From the NCBI GenBank assembly GCA_964600985.1, contig CAZRJR010000001.1, positions 147,270-211,269 of the forward strand: 64,000 nt of DNA, read 5' to 3'. A program made the position numbers and the translations under genes. Each line of letters starts with the position of its first letter. The stretch's first letter is position 1. Shown piece by piece: positions 1,960 through 61,757 of this stretch. The notes under the pieces are model-generated. The model was given only the letters and a program-made list of their open reading frames with translations, searched no databases and had not been told where the DNA came from. This DNA comes from an uncultured Candidatus Saccharibacteria bacterium. GTDB taxonomy: Bacteria > Patescibacteriota > Saccharimonadia > CAILAD01 > JADZBC01.

Positions 1960-3693
1960 ATGCTGTCGTATATTAAATTCCGCTGGCATCGGCAGATTCG
2001 GCGTTTGCGCAAACGACTCTGGGTGGGGCGGCGTTGGCTTAGTAATTATCTAGATAGGCACGTGTATGGCGCCTGGCAAAAGCTTGGTCCGCTGCGTTGG
2101 ATGTTTGTAGCATGGCTGGGGATTGTAGTCTTTGCCCTGTGGGGTGTGCTTGCTGGCATTGGCAAGCTAGACTCATACTTTGTTACTACCCAGCCGGTAC
2201 CTGGCGGGATTTATACCGAAGGCTTATTGGGTGAAGTACGCATTGTGAACCCAATTTTACCTGAGAATACCGCCACGAGTGATGTCGATAAGCTGGTGTT
2301 TAATGGTCTCACCAGGGTGAATACACAGCGCCAAATCGAACCAGATTTGGCCGAGCGCTGGGATGTATCGGCCGACCAAAAGACGTATACGTTCTACTTA
2401 CGCAAGGGAGTGAGTTGGCACGATGGTCAGCCGTTTACAGCCAAAGACGTTGCCTTTACTGTAGCGGCTATACAGAACCCTGATAGCAAGTCACCGCTGT
2501 CGGCCAATTGGCAGGGTATTAAGTACGAGGTGGTAGACGATAGCACGGTTAAGTTTGTGTTACCCAATAGTTATTCGTCATTTTTGTCGGCTACCACGGT
2601 AGGTATATTGCCGCACCACTTACTGGACTCCATCCGTCTCTCTACACTCCGTATCAATCCATTTAGCCAGCATCCCGTCGGTACTGGGCCCTACGCATTG
2701 TCCAGCCTAAGCAACGATAGTGGCTTAATAGTTTTAAAGGCTAATCAGCAGTACTTCCGGGGTAAGCCACTTATAGACGAGGTGCACTTTGCACTGTATA
2801 GTAGCCCGGCTGCACTGCTCGACGGCTATGCACGTAAGCAGATCTTGGGCATATCCGAGCTTAATCCCGACCAGTTGGCGATGGCCAAGAAGAACGACAA
2901 TCTCACGGTAAATGCCTTTAGTTTACCTGCCTACGTGGGTTTGTTCTTTAATACCAAAACACCATACCTGGCAGACGCTACTACCCGACAGGCAATCGCT
3001 CGGGCAATTGATCGCAAGCGTATTATAAGTAGTGCATTGTCTGATTCTGCTGTGCCCATTTATTATCCGCTTCTGCCGGGACAAGCAGGGTTTAATGCTA
3101 AGGCGGCGCGCTATAGCTACGACCCTACTGCTGCGGCAGCGGTACTCAAGACTAAAAAGCCCGCGCAGCCCCTGCGACTCGTAACACTTAAATCGCCAGA
3201 ATACAGTGCAGTAGCGCACGAAGTAGCCCAGGAGCTCAATCTTGCCGGCATACCAGTTGTGGTTACAGAGGCCGACATAGTCAGCTTGCAGCAGAATAAT
3301 ATACGGGCTCGTAATTACGACTTGTTACTGTATGGTCAGAATGCCGGTGTGGATTCCGACGTGTATTCGTTCTGGCACTCAAGCCAGGCGGCCGACCCGG
3401 GTCTGAATGTGTCGAATTACAAAAACGCCGAAGCCGATAAGCTCCTTGAGGCTGCCCGTTTGGCTCGGGATGCTAATTTGCGCGCTGCCAAATACGCAAG
3501 CTTTGTCGATGTATGGGCCAAAGACGCCCCGGCCGTATTGCTGTATAGCCCACGCTACCTATATGGCCAAGATGACCGCGTAGAGGGCTTAGTGGTAGGT
3601 AAGATTGCCGAGCCAAGTGATCGATTCTACCAGATAGAAAAGTGGTCTATGCGCCGAGCTCGTGTGCTCAAGCGCGACGCCGCGACCGAATAG
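1960..3693 (+). CDS. ABC transporter substrate-binding protein, family 5 (peptide/nickel type), with an N-terminal membrane anchor.
   Basis: 577 aa. An N-terminal TM helix is followed by an SBP_bac_5-like core (VFNGLTRV, YTFYLRKGVSWHDGQPFTAKDV, LLYG..AG.DSDVYSFWHSS). Confidence 0.8.
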   Translation: MLSYIKFRWHRQIRRLRKRLWVGRRWLSNYLDRHVYGAWQKLGPLRWMFVAWLGIVVFALWGVLAGIGKLDSYFVTTQPVPGGIYTEGLLGEVRIVNPILPENTATSDVDKLVFNGLTRVNTQRQIEPDLAERWDVSADQKTYTFYLRKGVSWHDGQPFTAKDVAFTVAAIQNPDSKSPLSANWQGIKYEVVDDSTVKFVLPNSYSSFLSATTVGILPHHLLDSIRLSTLRINPFSQHPVGTGPYALSSLSNDSGLIVLKANQQYFRGKPLIDEVHFALYSSPAALLDGYARKQILGISELNPDQLAMAKKNDNLTVNAFSLPAYVGLFFNTKTPYLADATTRQAIARAIDRKRIISSALSDSAVPIYYPLLPGQAGFNAKAARYSYDPTAAAAVLKTKKPAQPLRLVTLKSPEYSAVAHEVAQELNLAGIPVVVTEADIVSLQQNNIRARNYDLLLYGQNAGVDSDVYSFWHSSQAADPGLNVSNYKNAEADKLLEAARLARDANLRAAKYASFVDVWAKDAPAVLLYSPRYLYGQDDRVEGLVVGKIAEPSDRFYQIEKWSMRRARVLKRDAATE

Positions 3694-3757
3694 ACTCTGG
3701 GCACACGCTATAGCCTGTAGTACAATGCAATATGTTCTATATGTGGATCCGTATATT

Positions 3758-3970
3758 TGCCGCGGTGGTGCTGCGTGGATGTAAATATGTGTAGACACCA
3801 GCGTGTCACGGGGTTTAGTCTAGATTAGTATCCGACAGATTTTTAAAAGTAACAATACAATATACCGCGGTGGTGCTGCGTGAGAAACGTAAATATGTGT
3901 AGACACGAGCGTGTTGGCGGCGTAATCTGGGTGAGTATCCGACAGATCTTTAAGAGTAACAATAAAGTAT
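3758..3970 (+). repeat. Two tandem degenerate units of about 105 bp each. Each unit is a decayed copy of the tRNA-Leu 5' half plus its upstream promoter-like segment, lying immediately 5' of the intact tRNA-Leu(CAG).
   Basis: Unit 1 and unit 2 both begin ccgcggtggtgctgcgtg, contain gtaaatatgtgtagacac.agcgtg, and end gtatccgacagat.tttaa.agtaacaata.a.tat. The intact tRNA starts gccgcggtggtggaatggtagacacgctagc. Confidence 0.7.
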
Positions 3971-24443: not shown

Positions 24444-25076
24444 ATGAATGCCACAGAACTTATTCAATCAGTCGAAAAGAGCAGCCTCAAGGCTAAATTG
24501 CCAGACGTACGTCCCGGCGACACCGTGCGGGTGCACCAAATGATTCGCGAAGGCAACAAGCAACGCGTACAGATATTCGAAGGTGTAGTAATCCGTCGCA
24601 AGAGTATGAATAGCTTGCAGGCGAGCATTACTGTGCGTAAGATTGCCTCTGGTGTAGGGGTGGAGAAAACTTGGTTTATGCACTCACCCAATGTGGTTAA
24701 GATCGAAGTTGTGCGCCGTGCCAAAGTACGCCGCGCTTTCTTGGGCTACATGCGTGGGCTCCGTGGTAAGGCTGCTCGCATGGCCGAACAAGAGTTTGAC
24801 CGTGCTGCAGCTAACGAGGCTGATGCTCGCACCGGCGCGCAGATAGCTGCCGAAGCCCAGGCCGAGGTAGAGGCTGCAGAAGCTCCTGCCGGGGATGCTG
24901 GTGCAGACGTAATGCAGCAGGCCGACACAGTATCGACCGAAGAAGTGGCCAAGGCAGAAGAAAAAGAAGCTAAGCAAGCAGACCCAGAAAAGGACGCCAA
25001 TGCTGCCGACGACGAAGCAGTTGCCGAGAAGGTAGAAGCTGAGCAAGGCGAAGCCAAGGCCGAACCAAAAGCTTAA
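24444..25076 (+). CDS. rplS: 50S ribosomal protein L19 with a roughly 90-aa Ala/Glu-rich C-terminal extension.
   Basis: The first 115 aa match L19 (RPGDTVRVH..IREGNKQRVQIFEGVVI...). The remainder is low-complexity AEAQAEVEAAEA... Confidence 0.9.
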   Translation: MNATELIQSVEKSSLKAKLPDVRPGDTVRVHQMIREGNKQRVQIFEGVVIRRKSMNSLQASITVRKIASGVGVEKTWFMHSPNVVKIEVVRRAKVRRAFLGYMRGLRGKAARMAEQEFDRAAANEADARTGAQIAAEAQAEVEAAEAPAGDAGADVMQQADTVSTEEVAKAEEKEAKQADPEKDANAADDEAVAEKVEAEQGEAKAEPKA

Positions 25077-25092
25077 ATCTAAGGCTAACTAC

Positions 25093-25121
25093 TAAAAGCC
25101 CCTCATTGCGAGGGGCTTTTA
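25093..25121. terminator. Bidirectional rho-independent terminator after rplS.
   Basis: aaaagcccctc attgcg aggggctttt. Confidence 0.75.
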
Positions 25122-25144
25122 GATTGGAAAGTTTAATAACGGTA

Positions 25145-25708
25145 AAAGGTTCATTAAACGTAGAAGGGCCCTGGTCTTCTGACCAGGGCCAGCGCGATTG
25201 CGCTACCAGAGCCGGAATGCCACCGGTTGGCTTTTTATCCGATCATTGACCGGCATGGCCCAAAAGGGCGAGAAGGGGAGAAAAGAGCTGACTATTGGCT
25301 AGTCATTCTGAGTGCTCTCGCCGGGCAAGCCCACCTTGGTGGGGTCCTCCATACTGCCAAGCCTTTACCTTCGGTTTAAGCGCCGTGGTTCGCTTCACCA
25401 GTTAATTCTGGTCCAGGCCCTCTTTTCTCCGGAATGGGCACTATTCCGTGACTCTCCGCTTCCCCCACAGCGTAGGGGGTTAATCGGTCTGTCGGTACGT
25501 TTCGGGCGTCCATCTCCGATGCAAGAAAGTGAGCAGACGTATACTCACCCCCGGTATCCCTTGCCGGTGCACGTTCAGCTTCGCTGGGATTATGCGAGCC
25601 TAGTCTCTCCTCAGAGACGGTTCAGGTTTGGGTCCAGATCCCCATTCCCTAGCTAAGCAACGGTAGTATTGCTACGCTTAGCATGCAGGTTACCCGAAGG
25701 TAACCGAA
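25145..25708 (-). ncRNA. Candidate large structured ncRNA of about 560-580 nt, class unknown, in an ORF-free gap behind a consensus sigma70 promoter.
   Basis: On the minus strand, TTGACA (25739-25744), a 17-nt spacer and TACAAT (25716-25721). The region has many stable hairpins, for example ggttacc ttcg ggtaacc, gctaagc...gcttagc, cccac caag gtggg and gggccctggtc ttct gaccagggcc. No credible ORF is present: the 114-aa frame translates to Pro/Ser/Arg-rich nonsense. Confidence 0.4.
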
Positions 25709-25715
25709 CTTATGT

Positions 25716-25744
25716 ATTGTACTACACTATAGGCACAATGTCAA
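25716..25744 (-). promoter_or_regulatory. Near-consensus sigma70 promoter (TTGACA-N17-TACAAT) driving the candidate ncRNA on the minus strand.
   Basis: Plus-strand attgta at 25716-25721 and tgtcaa at 25739-25744, with 17-nt spacing. Confidence 0.6.
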
Positions 25745-25771
25745 TACTTTTTATATGCTATACTCATTCGT

Positions 25772-26371
25772 ATGATATGGGCCGGTTATGAGTATGAAGA
25801 AATGGCGCGAAGCCAGGGTTTGAAATTTATTACTGGGGCTGACGAGGTGGGGCGGGGTTGTTTGGCTGGGCCTATGGTAGTAGGTATGGCGGTTTTGCAG
25901 GACGAGTGCGGGCTTCAGGTGGCGGACTCGAAACTCCTCAGCGCCAAGAAGCGAGCAGTATTAGCGGATTTGATTAAGCAACAAGCCCACGCCTGGTCGA
26001 TCGGCAGGGTAGAATGTACCGAAATAGATGAATTAGGCCTGAGTACTGCCCTCAGATTAGCCTACCAGCGAGCGCTCGATAATCTCGGTGTTCAGCCTGA
26101 CAGATTGGTGATAGATGGACCACACAGAATATTGGACCACGACTTCATTGAGCCGATCGTTAAAGCAGATCAGCAGATTGCTTGCGTAGCTGCAGCGTCC
26201 ATACTAGCCAAAGTAGAGCGCGACACGTGGATGCAAACGCAGGCGGACGTGTACCCGCAGTATGGGTTTGCTACCAACGTAGGCTATGGCAGCGCCCAGC
26301 ACTTAGCTGCCTTGCGCGAGCATGGCCCAAGCCCGTTACATAGGCGCAGCTTTAAGGTTAAGAGGCTCTAG
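25772..26371 (+). CDS. rnhB: Ribonuclease HII.
   Basis: ITGADEVGRGCLAGPMVVGMAV matches the RNase HII active-site D-E-V-G-R-G region. 199 aa. Confidence 0.9.
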   Translation: MIWAGYEYEEMARSQGLKFITGADEVGRGCLAGPMVVGMAVLQDECGLQVADSKLLSAKKRAVLADLIKQQAHAWSIGRVECTEIDELGLSTALRLAYQRALDNLGVQPDRLVIDGPHRILDHDFIEPIVKADQQIACVAAASILAKVERDTWMQTQADVYPQYGFATNVGYGSAQHLAALREHGPSPLHRRSFKVKRL

Positions 26372-55053: not shown

Positions 55054-57162
55054 ATGGCTCGCGAATACTCACTCGAAAATACTCGTAACATTGGTACCAT
55101 TGCTCATATTGATGCTGGTAAAACTACCGTAACTGAAGCAATTTTGTACCGCACCGGACGCGTACACAAGATCGGTGAAGTTCACGAGGGTGCTGCAACC
55201 ATGGACTGGATGGAGCAAGAGCAAGAGCGCGGTATAACCATTACTTCCGCCGCTACTACGTGCTTCTGGAATGGGAACCGAATTAACATCATTGATACCC
55301 CAGGCCATATCGACTTTACGGTAGAGGTAGAGCGTAGTTTGCGTGTACTCGATGGTGCGGTAGTGCTTTTTGACGGCAAGATGGGCGTAGAACCACAAAG
55401 TGAAACGGTATGGCGCCAGGCCGACAAGTACGGCGTGCCACGTATTTGCTTCATTAATAAGATCAACCAGACTGGGGGGGACTTTTATAAATCACTCGAG
55501 TCGATTCACGCGCGATTAACGAAGCGGGCGTATGCTATCCACCTGCCAATCGGTTTCGAACAGAGCATTAATGGCTTGGTTGATTTAGTCGAAATGAAGG
55601 CGTACGAGTACAAGAACTACGCCGACAAAGAACTTAAAGAAATCCCAATCCCTGATGATATGACCGAGAAGGTCGCACACTACCGCCAGCACCTTATCGA
55701 GGCTGCCGTAGAGTCCGACGACGCAATTATGGAGAAGTACCTAGAAGGTAACGAGCTTACGGTAGAAGAGGTCAAGACAGTTGTTCGTAAATCAGTTCTA
55801 ACTGGCCAGTTTGTAGTTGTATCTGGTGGTGACGGCCGTGGTGTAATTGTAGAAAAGCTGCTTGATGCCATGATTGACTACCTGCCAAATCCACTAGACA
55901 TTACCGCGCCAATTGCTAAGGATGTGAAGACCGGCGAAGACAAGGTGATTGAAGTCTCCGACGACGCACCATTTGCTGGGCTAGCGTTCAAGATCGCCAC
56001 CGATCCATTTGTAGGTAAGCTGGCTTTCTTCCGGGTATACTCAGGTGTGCTTAAGAGCGGGAGCTATATTCTAAATGCTTCTACGGGGGAGAAAGAGCGG
56101 GTAGGTCGTATCGTGCGTATGCATGCTAACAACCGGGAAGAAGTTAGTGAGGTATACGCCGGCGATATTGCGGCCGCAGTCGGGCTCAAAAACACCATTA
56201 CCGGTAACACAATTTGTGATCCAGCTCACCCCGTTATGCTAGAGTCAATTACCTTTGCTGAGCCAGTTATCTCGATTGCAATCGAGCCTAAGACCAAGGC
56301 CGATCAAGAGAAGATGGGTATTGCCCTCTCGCGCTTAGCCGAAGAAGATCCAACCTTCCGTGTGCACACCGACGAAGACAGTGGCCAGACTATTATTGAT
56401 GGCATGGGTGAATTACACCTTGAAGTGTTGGTGGACCGTATGAAGCGGGAATTTAAGGTAGAGGCAAATGTTGGTCGCCCTCAGGTAGCATACCGTGAAA
56501 CCATTCGCAAGAGTACCCAGGTAGAAGGTAAGTTTGTACGTCAATCTGGTGGGCGTGGTCAGTATGGTCATGTATGGATCGAGTTGAGTCCGCTGGTGCA
56601 CGAGGAAGGCGCCGAAGAGCGCAAAACCTTTGAGTTCGAGAACGCGATTGTGGGCGGTGCAGTGCCTCGTGAGTACATTAAACCAGTCGAAGAAGGAATA
56701 CGTGAAGCTCTCGCTAACGGTGTAGTGGCGGGCTATCCGGTAGTAGATGTACACGCCAAGCTCTACGACGGCTCATACCACGACGTAGACTCCTCAGAAA
56801 TGGCCTTTAAAATCGCCGGATCTATGGCGCTCCAGGCGGGTGTACGTCAGGCCGATCCAGTTATTCTGGAGCCTATGATGAAGGTTGAGATTACTACCCC
56901 AGAGGAGTTTATGGGTGATGTGATCGGCGACGTTAATGCTAAACGTGGTCGGGTGGAGAAAATGGAAGACCGCATGGGGGCCAAGGTGATCAATGCTTAT
57001 ATACCGCTCTCGGGCATGTTTGGTTACGCTACAACTCTGCGCTCTATGACTCAGGGCCGCGCCAGCTCGGCGATGGAATTTGACCACTACGCTGAAGTAC
57101 CGCGCAATGTGGCCGAAGAGCTCATTGGCAAGCGCCAAGCGGCAGTCGAAGAGGGTCGTTAG
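55054..57162 (+). CDS. fusA: Elongation factor G.
   Basis: GTP-binding [21 protein letters not shown]. 702 aa. Confidence 0.95.
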
Positions 57163-57237
57163 TTTTCTATTTCTCAAGCCACATAGTTAATTAAAGCCCT
57201 GGCCTCGGAGCCTTTAATATTGACAGGTGGTCTTGTC

Positions 57238-57266
57238 AAAGGTATTATATACTTGATCGGTAACGG
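57238..57266 (+). promoter_or_regulatory. Near-consensus sigma70 promoter (TTGACA-N17-TATTAT) downstream of fusA.
   Basis: ttgaca at 57238-57243, 17-nt spacer, tattat at 57261-57266. Confidence 0.6.
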
Positions 57267-57269
57267 TCG

Positions 57270-57792
57270 TACCAGCGCACTATAGTAGGTCGAGGCGTCT
57301 AGGTGTCGGGTGAGGGCCCCGACACCATAGTACGAACTAGGTTAGAGACCTGGTCCTCTTCCGAAACCTCCTATTGCTCCTTGCTCCGGCTAGGGTGGCT
57401 TGATCTGCACCAGGTTGAGACAAGTAAGAGGGGAGAGTAGTGCGTGCGGTACAGCTACAAGCTCTGGAGTTGGGGCGAAAAGTTTCGTGCACAAACTTCG
57501 GAGACTCGACGGTACCGTCGAGAGTTCGAATTGCGGCCGAGAATTACTTAGGCCGGGGAAGAACTTTGTAGTGTAGGTAGCGTTCTCATGCCTACGCACC
57601 TCCGCCACTCCTCCTACGCCTCCGGGAGGACTACAAGGGTAGTGGCGACAAGGTGGCGGCCAGGGCATAGGCCTTGCCCAAATGGCCACTCGGCGAAATT
57701 TTGATTGCTCCTGCCTGGAGGAGATCCCGCTCTCAAAACTCGCCAACACGGGCCCGACCTCCCAGAGGTCGGGCCCGTTCTGCCTCTTTATG
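57270..57792 (+). ncRNA. Candidate large structured ncRNA of about 520 nt, class unknown. It lies between fusA and tuf and is bounded by its own promoter and a terminal hairpin. The tuf promoter follows immediately.
   Basis: ORF-free on the + strand. The antisense 119-aa ORF is Pro/Ser-rich nonsense. Dense hairpins include gtgtcgggtgagggccccgacacc, ccgccact...agtggcg and ggccgag...ctcggcc (approx.). It ends with cgggcccgacctc ccag aggtcgggcccg followed by tctgcctcttt. Confidence 0.4.
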
Positions 57793-57915: not shown

Positions 57916-59103
57916 ATGGCAGCAGAATCATTTGACCGTAGTAAACCGCACGTAAACGTCGGTACAATGGGGCATGTAGACCACGGTAAAACTACTCTTA
58001 CCGCCGCTATTACCCACGTATTGTCTAAGAAACTTCCGAGCGCAGTTAATAAGGCTATTAACTACGACGAAATCGACAAAGCTCCGGAAGAGCGCGAACG
58101 TGGTATCACCATCGCTACTTCTCACCAGGAATACGAGAGCGAAAAGCGACACTATGCGCACGTAGATATGCCCGGTCACGCTGACTATGTAAAGAACATG
58201 ATTACCGGTGCAGCTCAGATTGACGGTGCCGTACTCGTAGTATCGGCTGCTGATGGTCCTATGCCGCAGACTCGTGAGCACGTATTGCTTGCTCGTCAGG
58301 TAGGCGTGCCGTACATTCTTGTATATATGAACAAGATGGACATGGCCGATCCAGAGCTAGCCGAACTTGTAGAACTGGAAATCCGCGAGCTTCTTGCCAA
58401 GAATGGCTACGACGAAAACGCCCCAGTGGTTAAGGGTTCTGCCCTTAAGGCTCTCGAGGGTGACGCTGCTGCCGAAGACTCAATCATGGAGCTTGTAAAG
58501 GCCATGGACGAAAGCATACCAGAGCCAAAGCGCGAAATCGACAAGCCATTCCTGATGCCAGTCGAAGACGTATTCTCGATCAAGGGTCGTGGTACGGTTG
58601 CAACTGGTCGAATCGAGCAGGGTATCATCAAGGTTGGTGAAGAAATCGAGATCATCGGTTTGCACGATAGCAAAAAGACTACGGTAACTGGTGTAGAAAT
58701 GTTCAAGAAATTGCTCGACGAAGGTCGCGCAGGTGACAACGTAGGTGTATTGCTGCGTGGTGTGGAGCGAACCGACATTGAGCGTGGTCAAGTGCTTGCT
58801 AAGCCAGGTTCAATTACCCCACACACCGAGTTTGAATCTGAAGTGTACGTACTTAAGAAGGAAGAGGGCGGTCGACACACTCCATTCTTCAAGGGCTACA
58901 AGCCGCAGTTCTACATCCGTACTACCGATGTAACAGGTGAAGTTACGCTTCCAGACGGCGTAGAAATGGTTATGCCAGGCGATAACATCAAGATGAAGGT
59001 TAAGCTGATTGCTCCTATCGCCATGGAAGAAGGCCTTCGCTTCGCTATTCGCGAGGGTGGCCGCACTGTAGGTGCCGGTGTTGTAACGAAAATCAACAAG
59101 TAA
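57916..59103 (+). CDS. tuf: Elongation factor Tu.
   Basis: [22 protein letters not shown]. 395 aa. RBS aaggag. Confidence 0.96.
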
Positions 59104-60585: not shown

Positions 60586-60906
60586 TCAGGCAGAAAGGGC
60601 AGCAACGGCCGTGTGGCCGCTCGGAGGTTCCCAGGGAATCAGCGCAGGGTAGATCTCCAGAGCCGGGATGAGTAGGTAGCGCTCCACGGTATCAGCAATA
60701 ACTGCTGCCTCTGTAGGGCTGATTGCTGGGGTCCCTCGACGCGGCCTGATCCGGATGACCTTTCGGTCGGGGAAGCCGTGTGCTTCAACTTTGTAGCGAT
60801 CACCTAGTCTCCGGGAGAGATCTGCGATCGTGGCATCACACGGAGCCGTACCCCGCAGGAGGGCACGCTTCCCACTCCACACCAGTCGGATGGCGCTTGC
60901 TTGCAT
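60586..60906 (-). CDS. Hypothetical protein (island gene C), G+C-rich.
   Basis: 106 aa. A hairpin (cacctggcccc gttgaa ggggccaggtg) lies just downstream of its stop. No recognisable domain. Confidence 0.4.
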   Translation of the reverse strand: MQASAIRLVWSGKRALLRGTAPCDATIADLSRRLGDRYKVEAHGFPDRKVIRIRPRRGTPAISPTEAAVIADTVERYLLIPALEIYPALIPWEPPSGHTAVAALSA

Positions 60907-61757
60907 GGCTTTCTCCTTTCGGGGTTGCTTGGGCCAGGCACACTACTCACAGTAAGTGTGGGCAGCGTGCCGCGTCCAAGACAATCCAGTCTCTGCCTGA
61001 TTTGTAAAAGAAACTAGAGCATCATGCGTGCCCTAATGAGTACAGATAATACTCTAAATATGTGGATAAGTCAATCTAATTCCTTACTAAACTATAGACA
61101 AGTAGTATGTAGTATGATACTATAGGTGTCTAAGTTTGGCGTTCACGCCAAATTGCACCTTATACACCTCGGACTTCGGTCCGTAGAATCAGCTCTCGAC
61201 GCGACCAGTGATGTTGTCAAGGCTTGATTCTACGGACTGATCCACGAACCCGGTTAGGGTACGCGGTAAGTCCAGCTCCGGGTCGATAGGAGGTGTAGTG
61301 GTGGGCCACTGAATGCCAGTGTAGCTTTCTCGCTCAGGCGACGATTGCTCCTCGCATGTCTAAAGCCATACCGCTCTACTTCCAAAAGATCCGGGCAAAT
61401 TCTCCCGCCATGCCACAAGCATGGTGGGCCTGGAGGGGTGGATTCCGCCCCCCTCCAAGGCTTGGCGCACTAAACTCGCGCGATTTAGGTCGCTGCAGTT
61501 GGTGTGTCGCCCGAGATGGCCATCCCGCCGGCCATCTCGTGGTTCGCGTCGTGCATTATATATTCACGGCCACAGTCGGAGACACGCCCGCGTCTCCGCC
61601 CCCGCAGCACGCGATCATCGCCCGCTTGCTGCCTCCGAGGGTGGGGCCGACCTTCACGGTTGGCCCCACCCTCCGCCCCTCTATATGAGGGGCTTTTGAT
61701 TTTGGTATTATTCCGACAGCTTAGACAGTCCAAAGCTTTTGTGCTTAAATAGAAGCT

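Follow-up and report, generated by a model that had tools for sequence, protein, structure and literature searches.

Evidence for an undescribed family of large structured RNA in the rplS–rnhB gap of Saccharibacteria

Large, intricately folded RNAs are rare in bacteria, and the few known classes are ribozymes, ribonucleoprotein (RNP) machines and, recently, RNA-only nanocages. The subject of this work is RNA-B, a non-coding RNA (ncRNA) read from the minus strand between rplS and rnhB in a 64,000-nt stretch of DNA from an uncultured Candidatus Saccharibacteria bacterium (contig CAZRJR010000001.1, positions 147,270–211,269). This whole stretch is called the window, and positions are counted from its first letter. 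The closest described systems are OLE RNA, the ROOL and GOLLD RNAs and RNase P RNA. OLE RNAs (RF01071) are found in Firmicutes and are genetically linked to genes for partner proteins (oap). RNA-B is reminiscent of these RNAs of about 600 nt, with many helices interspersed with invariant unpaired nucleotides. It differs from them in occurring in Saccharibacteria, in having no linked protein gene, in being present or absent among close relatives and in giving no cmscan match. Two reports describe OLE as a stand-alone, highly expressed RNA of one bacterial lineage, which acts within an RNP and whose biochemical function is unknown (PMC3413148, PMC9723947). Like RNA-B, ROOL and GOLLD (RF03087, RF01998) are large and ornate, contain pseudoknots, have no protein gene associated with them and are accessory, with a patchy occurrence. 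They typically reside in prophages or beside tRNA arrays, in Firmicutes and relatives, whereas RNA-B lies between core housekeeping genes, matches neither model and was not found in phage or viral collections. Both form RNA-only homo-oligomers, as a further report states (PMC12286853), and homo-oligomerisation of this type is by analogy a possible model for RNA-B. RNase P RNA is similar in size. Its many helices likewise form two domains that contain conserved unpaired motifs, its promoter is of the stable-RNA type, and its conserved core is surrounded by variable insertions at the periphery. Unlike RNase P RNA, RNA-B is dispensable at this locus in close relatives and has no P4 helix.

Members of the candidate phyla radiation (CPR) have tiny genomes and little spare DNA. 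The clade that carries RNA-B still spends 0.5 to almost 2 kb on one intergenic site, where up to three strongly promoted structured RNAs are gained and lost between close relatives. Full-text literature searches did not turn up any description of large ncRNAs from Saccharibacteria, Patescibacteria or CPR bacteria. RNA-B is classed as new among the large structured RNAs of bacteria, and its 12 known sequences all come from one Saccharibacteria clade. The novelty lies in the class; orphan large structured RNAs are already known as a phenomenon. An independent minus-strand gene for a large structured ncRNA of an undescribed family is the reading preferred here, with a probability of about 0.8. 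The original prediction, made from the letters of the window, had proposed a large structured ncRNA of unknown class on this strand, and homologues, covarying helices and the lack of an Rfam match bear it out. The results suggest that new RNA classes can be sought in CPR genomes, a source as yet untapped. They also provide an entry point to the RNA-based biology of uncultured epibionts, in the form of sequence-defined putative transcripts, covariance models and predicted tertiary contacts. Patescibacteria are reported to be open to genetic manipulation (PMC10633639).

A covarying fold on the minus strand

The RNase HII of the window is 72–76% identical to proteins from six Saccharibacteria/Patescibacteria metagenome-assembled genomes (MAGs). 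RnhB served as the anchor for a genome-collection scan that, with the encoding contigs, gave about 20 loci from the same clade. Within these, nhmmer, which the original prediction had put forward as a check, and a family hidden Markov model (HMM) detected 11 further distinct homologues (L004, L005, L042, L043, L046, L047, L048, L049, L050, L068 and L069). The RNA-B of L071, from another sample, is identical to that of the window. A contig of Logan SRR14932662 agrees with the window at every position of the gap. All homologues are found in Saccharibacteria MAGs or contigs, in the rplS–rnhB gap and on the minus strand. They form two subtypes. Subtype 1 consists of the window, L047, L069, L048, L050, L049 and L004, plus the divergent L068; subtype 2 consists of L043, L046 and L042, joined by L005 in its 5' half only. 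The halves of RNA-B fall to about 35–45% identity between subtypes, compared with more than 70% for the flanking proteins (72–76% for RnhB).

Two covariance models, R1 for the 5' domain and R2 for the 3' domain, were built from subtype-1 alignments with hand-checked RNAalifold structures. (i) In a search space of 195 kb, made up of the window plus the loci, each model recovers exactly the 12 sequences (E ≤ 0.01) and nothing else. The window scores 254 bits with R1 and 181 bits with R2, as expected by construction from its place in both seeds. (ii) The window has the full set of family features: a promoter 35 nt before GUU(C/A)(G/C)G, helices P1–P8, helices H0–H7 ending in UCUCCCC, and matches to both models. 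(iii) In total 96 base pairs are modelled, in 19 helices of a branched fold over about 440 nt. The 5' domain (alignment A6) accounts for 50 pairs in nine helices and the 3' domain (alignment A8) for 46 pairs in ten. (iv) Standard pairs fill 94.6% of cells in the 5' domain and 92.1% in the 3' domain; with the 3' partners slid by 1–3 columns the values are 33–48% and 34–48%. (v) Compensatory double changes affect 54 of the 96 pairs, 29 in the 5' domain and 25 in the 3' domain, against 3–6 and 2–11 in the slid controls. The contrast with these controls is large, and most helices contain several different pair types. (vi) Of 500 shuffles for each domain, none came up to the real alignment in percentage paired, in double-change counts or in covariation score. 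Across the alignments there are 102 G·U cells and 19 A·C cells, an excess that fits the minus strand as the RNA strand. The minimum free energy (MFE) z-score of the block is −3.6 on each strand, so that folding energy does not tell the strands apart and the comparative evidence is decisive.

The motifs that remain invariant and unpaired are the P8 loop AGAUGGAC, the internal loops UCAGAAU of H6 and AUGGAG of H4, and GCCUGGA. A fast-diverging sequence combined with a kept fold and a few invariant unpaired motifs is seen in RNAs that present a surface or an active site. Three tertiary contacts are candidates. The first pseudoknot (PK1) joins the loops of P5 and P6. It is formed by AUCCC and GGGAU in six subtype-1 sequences (window, L047, L069, L048, L050 and L004), by AUCUC and GGGAU in L049, by UUCC and GGAG in L068, and by GUUCC and GGAAC in all four subtype-2 sequences. 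Two positions change on both sides, in pairings read by hand. PK2 would pair the P3b loop GUCUG with CAGAC in subtype 1, inside the invariant CCGACAGAC, or with CAGAU in subtype 2; it does not vary, and L005 and L004 fit it poorly. PK3 would pair the internal-loop GGAG(R)(R) (GGAG at 25350–25347) with (Y)(Y)CUCC of the tail in 12 of 12 sequences, with one-sided changes only. As a speculation, the tail may switch partners or form a triplex. A long-range helix between UCCCAG and CUGGA, proposed by RNAalifold from a full-length MAFFT alignment, was dropped, as it fails in subtype 1 on a hand check.

The minus-strand promoter matches 11 of 12 consensus positions. The original prediction had called it a perfect TTGACA-17-TACAAT promoter; its presence, strand and 17-nt spacer stand, and 'perfect' is slightly overstated because the −10 element is TACAAT and not TATAAT. 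The pattern TTGACA-N17-TAnnAT occurs at two sites in the 64 kb, against 0.13 expected. Tested on the ten homologues known at that stage, the extended pattern TTGACA-N17-TAnnAT-N4-7-GTT(A/C)(C/G)GT matches all ten. The distance from promoter to start is constant among them, with the −35 element 35 nt (33 in L004) before the conserved GUU(C/A)(G/C)G. At the distal end, a GC-rich hairpin of 8–14 bp followed by (C)UUCU..UUU is found 44–270 nt past the core in 11 of 12 homologues, and its stem sequences differ from homologue to homologue. From the conserved promoter and this terminator-like hairpin, the transcript is predicted to run from about 25709 to about 25156, a length of about 550 nt. The bidirectional rplS terminator forms the lower boundary of the inserted block and is a backstop for the RNA-B transcript. 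The hairpins singled out at the outset, namely GGUUACC-UUCG-GGUAACC (25705–25688), the 25190–25167 stem and the rplS terminator, are all found in the sequence.

Comparison with Rfam 15 (4227 families) at gathering thresholds gave only tRNAs in the window and nothing in L001–L006. Relaxed thresholds (E ≤ 10 on the block, E ≤ 5 on two divergent homologues) gave only chance matches, mostly on the other strand or to terminators. This cmscan, also suggested with the original prediction, found no RNase P, tmRNA, signal recognition particle (SRP), 6S or large-class RNA even at E ≤ 10. Models for OLE, ROOL, GOLLD, raiA and HEARO matched neither at gathering nor at E ≤ 10.

The distance from the rplS stop (25076) to the rnhB start (25772) is 695 bp. 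This is the largest gap in the window not filled by an open reading frame (ORF) or tRNAs, in agreement with the ORF-poor block first described there. Its sole long frame (25312–25656, plus strand, 114 aa, GTG start) was rightly set aside as a non-gene: neither this frame nor four others match Pfam, and it is not conserved in the homologues, across which the longest ORF switches strand and frame. In close RNA-B pairs indels are mostly of 1–2 nt, and substitutions show no preference for any of the three codon positions. Lacking a Pfam match, a conserved frame and codon periodicity, the block was rejected as a protein-coding gene or pseudogene. Absence of homologues and a protein-level match had been named in advance as signs against an RNA gene; homologues were found and a protein-level match was not.

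Table 1. Positions of RNA-B, its parts and other features. Positions refer to the window unless a locus is named.
Feature	Position	Strand	Details
sigma-70-type promoter	25716..25744	−	−35 TTGACA 25744-25739, 17-nt spacer, −10 TACAAT 25721-25716
5' domain	25453..25709	−	model R1, alignment A6
P1	25705-25688	−	
P2	25682-25652	−	
P3a/P3b	25651-25623	−	
P4	25618-25603	−	
P5	25600-25577	−	
P6	25567-25551	−	
P7	25550-25527	−	
P8	25519-25502	−	loop AGAUGGAC
candidate pseudoknot PK1	25556..25590	−	P5 loop AUCCC (25590-25586) with P6 loop GGGAU (25560-25556)
conserved CCGACAGAC	25495-25487	−	followed by variable hairpin 25479-25462
3' domain	25269..25458	−	model R2, alignment A8
H0, 5' strand	25457-25452	−	GGAGAG
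H1	25451-25426	−	
purine tract	25430-25420	−	GGAGAAAAGAG
conserved GCCUGGA	25418-25412	−	
H2	25412-25397	−	
H3	25395-25378	−	
H4/H5	25360-25321	−	internal loop AUGGAGGA
H6/H7	25319-25283	−	internal loop UCAGAAU
pyrimidine tail	25282-25269	−	UUCUCCCCUUCUCG
variable 3' extension	25191..25268	−	small hairpins 25269-25258 and 25253-25239, then ~46-nt module
~46-nt module	25236-25191	−	A-rich-GCCAACCGG-loop-CCGGCUCUGGUAGC-hairpin
probable RNA-B terminator	25156..25190	−	10-bp GC-rich hairpin GGCCCUGGUC-AGAA-GACCAGGGCC (25190-25167), then CUUCUACGUUU (U-rich tail 25166-25156)
bidirectional rplS terminator	25092..25122	both	CTAAAAGCCCCTC-ATTGC-GAGGGGCTTTTAG
rplS (ribosomal protein L19)	24444-25076	+	
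rnhB (RNase HII)	25772-26371	+	
candidate RNA-E	57220-57790	+	promoter 57220-57248, stretch 57256-57790 (~535 nt)
RNA-A	L004 3460-3925	−	~430-500 nt; in tandem with or instead of RNA-B
RNA-C	L004 2306-2743	−	~430-500 nt; in tandem with or instead of RNA-B
RNA-D	L001 2581-3312; L041 2081-2813; L005 1799-2575; L046 1325-2112	−	~730-790-bp ORF-free island

Alleles and empty sites

RNA-B is an accessory gene, missing from an otherwise identical site in close relatives. Four loci (L001, L002, L003 and L041) have an empty site, where rplS and rnhB are 64–138 bp apart. The rplS terminator of L001 and L041 runs straight into the −10 element of rnhB (TGCTATACT), and this junction defines the extra block of the window as about 25122–25756. 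L051 and L006 are also without RNA-B, yet they carry two further RNA units, RNA-A and RNA-C, in the gap.

The alleles differ in the affinities of their two halves. The 5' half of the L005 copy (RNA-B at 3459–3924) is 80% identical to L046, and its 3' half is 57–63% identical to subtype 1 and 41–46% to subtype 2. RNA-B alleles are domain mosaics, a pattern suggesting that alleles have recombined where the two domains meet. In L050 and L049 the asymmetry is reversed relative to the window.

The promoter of RNA-B stands back-to-back with the promoter region of rnhB (25716–25772), where a −10-like TATACT lies at about 25760–25765 and the ATG at 25772. In empty-site relatives, the −35 position of rnhB falls within the rplS terminator. 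Insertion of RNA-B therefore alters the upstream context of rnhB, and divergent-promoter interference between the two genes is possible.

Proposed function and competing explanations

RNA-B neither overlaps nor precedes a gene on its own strand, which argues that it acts in trans and is not a leader, riboswitch or antisense RNA. As a riboswitch or cis leader it was rejected on position as well: the next gene in the minus-strand direction is rplS, in opposite orientation and beyond two terminators. The following mechanism is proposed. (i) RNA-B would be transcribed from its near-consensus sigma-70 promoter to its own GC-rich terminator hairpin. (ii) The RNA folds into two domains with at least 19 helices maintained by compensatory evolution. 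(iii) The 5' domain (P1–P8) is probably compacted by the pseudoknot between the P5 and P6 loops, and possibly by GUCUG pairing with CAGAC too. (iv) The 3' domain (H0–H7) is probably closed by pairing of the pyrimidine tail (UUCUCCCC) with the conserved GGAG internal loop. (v) The product may be a stable scaffold that displays invariant unpaired motifs to a protein or RNA partner encoded elsewhere. Candidates for display are the AGAUGGAC loop, the UCAGAAU and AUGGAG internal loops, CCGACAGAC and CUGGA. (vi) Like OLE or 6S RNA, such a scaffold would work in the form of an RNP.

Drawn by analogy, a trans-acting scaffold or RNP component is the tentative favourite among functions, at less than even odds. 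RNA-only self-assembly of the ROOL/GOLLD type, or catalysis, would come next; the two are unlikely even when taken together. A bolder and quite doubtful proposal holds that five or more mutually unrelated large ornate RNAs (RNA-A to RNA-E) form an exchangeable RNA toolkit, in which RNA-B is a ribozyme or self-assembling machine. If this were true, ultra-small epibiotic Saccharibacteria would keep RNA-A to RNA-E behind rRNA-grade promoters despite a very compact genome (a contig of 486.8 kb is listed for the RnhB of the window), and RNA-B would be used in the epibiont's interaction with its host or with phages.

Several points weigh against the reading of RNA-B as an independent gene for a structured RNA, or against parts of it. 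Only 12 sequences from one narrow clade are compared, and many compensatory cells derive from few events, mainly the split between subtypes. Because the alignments used for counting had been fitted to the structures of the models, pairing is inflated; the models also give poor alignments for P5–P8 of L043, L046 and L005 and for parts of the 3' domain in subtype 2. In PK2 and PK3 the complementarity is invariant and does not covary. In the window, the tail has an alternative 11-bp pairing, GGAGAAAAGAG with CUCUUUUCUCC. The ends of the transcript are placed by promoter and terminator sequence alone, and the scaffold or RNP mechanism is an argument by analogy.

Of the competing explanations, an improbable one that survives better than the rest is a selfish or mobile cassette RNA that persists by spread, such as an ORF-less retroelement, an intron remnant, a satellite-like RNA or a recombination cassette. 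This would account for the patchy presence and the clean empty site, for the tandem arrays and shuffling of RNA-A, RNA-B and RNA-C, for the domain-mosaic alleles, and for a 46-nt module common to otherwise unrelated RNAs. However, all 12 copies sit in the same gap, with one copy in the window, and no integrase, reverse transcriptase or transposase gene was found within 3.5 kb at any locus. The ends of the insert have no terminal repeats, inverted or direct, and no target duplication, and a transposon was rejected on this ground. A blastn search of 50,697 phage and 72,556 plasmid records gave no match. A metagenome-wide scan with a promoter-plus-P1 pattern, which matched all ten homologues then known, returned 12 matches; all were ordinary promoters before ORFs, and none fits the family HMM. 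Scans of viral contigs for the shared module and for the H4 motif returned 133 loci, all by chance and none matching the HMM, the first pattern being too degenerate. A group II intron or retroelement RNA was rejected on its own account, given the separate promoter, the intergenic position and the lack of a reverse transcriptase gene within 3.5 kb. No group II model matched the RNA strand of the block; the sole such match was on the opposite strand of L004 (E = 1.7).

Highly improbable is a sponge or decoy that would titrate a GGA- or Shine–Dalgarno-binding factor (CsrA-like, or the 30S anti-Shine–Dalgarno) through GGAG/UGGA motifs. GGAG is enriched about 2-fold (4–8 copies in each RNA, with about 2.6 expected), CUCC is present roughly once in each, and GGA is part of the conserved unpaired motifs AGAUGGAC, AUGGAGG and CUGGA. 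Taken as a whole, however, GGA is weakly enriched, with 11–20 per RNA against about 9 expected (z 0.6–4.0, mostly 1–2); CsrB has 18–22 GGA sites. Several GGA lie in stems or predicted tertiary pairs, and the CUCC tail of the same RNA is the predicted partner of one GGAG or more. A sponge would not require so elaborate a fold, with covariation and pseudoknots. No csrA gene came to light, and no search aimed at one was made.

It is very hard to credit that RNA-B is a much diverged housekeeping RNA (RNase P, tmRNA, SRP or 6S) missed by the Rfam models. Its size of about 450–550 nt, strong stable-RNA-type promoter and multi-helix fold fit in general terms, and none of the four was found elsewhere in the 64-kb window. 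Yet the RNase P models (RNaseP_bact_a/b; RF00010/RF00011) did not match the block or the two divergent homologues at E ≤ 10 and E ≤ 5, respectively. Of the P4-type long-range helix with its GGAAAGUCC...ACAGAA(N)CCGGCUUA strands, neither motif is present in any of the 12 sequences, and RNA-B has no CR-I/IV/V signature of RNase P RNA. ARAGORN reported no tmRNA: its matches in the window were all tRNAs, and six related loci gave no match. Nor was an Rfam tmRNA match obtained. The hallmarks of RNase P, tmRNA and SRP had seemed unconvincing at first inspection, a judgement confirmed by Rfam, ARAGORN and the absence of these motifs. The resemblance then noted to P18 of RNase P does not hold: the stretch is hairpin H7 (25315–25297), a simple covarying hairpin without RNase P context. 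6S and SRP RNAs had no Rfam match at E ≤ 10 and are much smaller and of another shape than the branched RNA-B. 6S RNA is a rod of about 180 nt with a central bubble, and SRP RNA is marked by a domain IV helix that has a symmetric loop and a GNRA loop. A further point against the housekeeping reading is that close relatives lack the gene at this site, an odd pattern if the RNA were essential.

Barely worth entertaining is a block with no function as RNA (a decayed protein gene, a neutral spacer, or an insulator, terminator or divergent promoter acting in cis on rplS/rnhB): the back-to-back promoters (25716–25765), the plus-strand terminator look of the shared module and the equal MFE z-scores would suit it, but spacer or pseudogene cannot explain the compensatory changes in 54 of 96 pairs, no Pfam match or conserved frame exists, and relatives that lack the block would, judged by sequence, express rplS and rnhB with a spacer of 64 bp.

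Further RNA units and neighbouring genes

As many as three minus-strand units stand in tandem in the rplS–rnhB gap of relatives, and every unit has its own TTGACA-17-TAnnAT promoter and terminator. RNA-A adjoins rnhB (L004, L048, L051 and L006) and RNA-C adjoins rplS (L004, L047, L048, L051 and L006). Both begin with AUGUCAC, and their alignments contain compensatory hairpin changes. RNA-A, RNA-B and RNA-C are mutually unrelated in sequence, and no Rfam match to RNA-A or RNA-C was found. The region between dnaE and rplS contains a fourth minus-strand unit, RNA-D, in L001, L002, L005, L041 and L046. Its promoter, TTGACA-17-TATTAT, faces away from rplS, and the island ends at the bidirectional terminator of dnaE. 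RNA-D is conserved among four loci, has no Rfam match and is absent from the window, where the spacer is 46 bp long.

The window's only other exact TTGACA-N17-TAnnAT site is the promoter of a candidate RNA-E. It lies within a 750-bp ORF-free gap between an EF-G-sized ORF (55054–57162) and an EF-Tu-sized ORF (57916–59103). RNA-E ends in a 12-bp GC hairpin followed by GUUCUGCCUCUUU (57751–57790) and has a folding z-score of −6.75. It has no Rfam match and no similarity to RNA-A, RNA-B, RNA-C or RNA-D.

The module of about 46 nt in the RNA-B tail has the consensus A-rich-GCCAACCGG-loop-CCGGCUCUGGURGC-hairpin, a pattern that occurs once in the window against 0 expected. It is found in the RNA-B tails of L042 (834–858), L043 (2855–2880) and L046 (2856–2888), and also inside RNA-A of L048 (3164–3188), L051 (3170–3195) and L006 (1933–1958). 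The RNA-A HMM matches the window at this module only. Read on the plus strand, the module resembles an intrinsic terminator, a hairpin followed by GGCTTTTT. Possible roles are a site for a protein, a signal for processing, a terminator of antisense transcription and a joint for recombination. The tandem units, the shared module and the domain mosaics together indicate that the locus behaves as a recombining array of RNA cassettes. A second shared tail block (..GUGGCGCGCGGAAAUACCGCCCCA..) occurs past the RNA-B core in L042, L068 and L005. The RNA-B tail of L068 is about 380 nt long, and the tails look like mosaics of small modules.

A further stretch of 449 bp in the window (60906–61356) has no ORF of at least 70 aa and lies upstream of a run of small plus-strand ORFs. 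It gave no Rfam match at gathering and could be the leader of a ribosomal-protein operon or another RNA.

The gene order at the RNA-B locus is dnaE, rplS, the gap, rnhB, yraN, nusA and a clpB-like gene, with Pfam labels taken from the same genes in relatives. A typical L19 has about 115 aa. The L19 of the window (24444–25076) has 210 aa, with an acidic, Ala/Glu/Lys-rich C-terminal extension of about 95 residues, and this extension is kept in relatives (198–211 aa).

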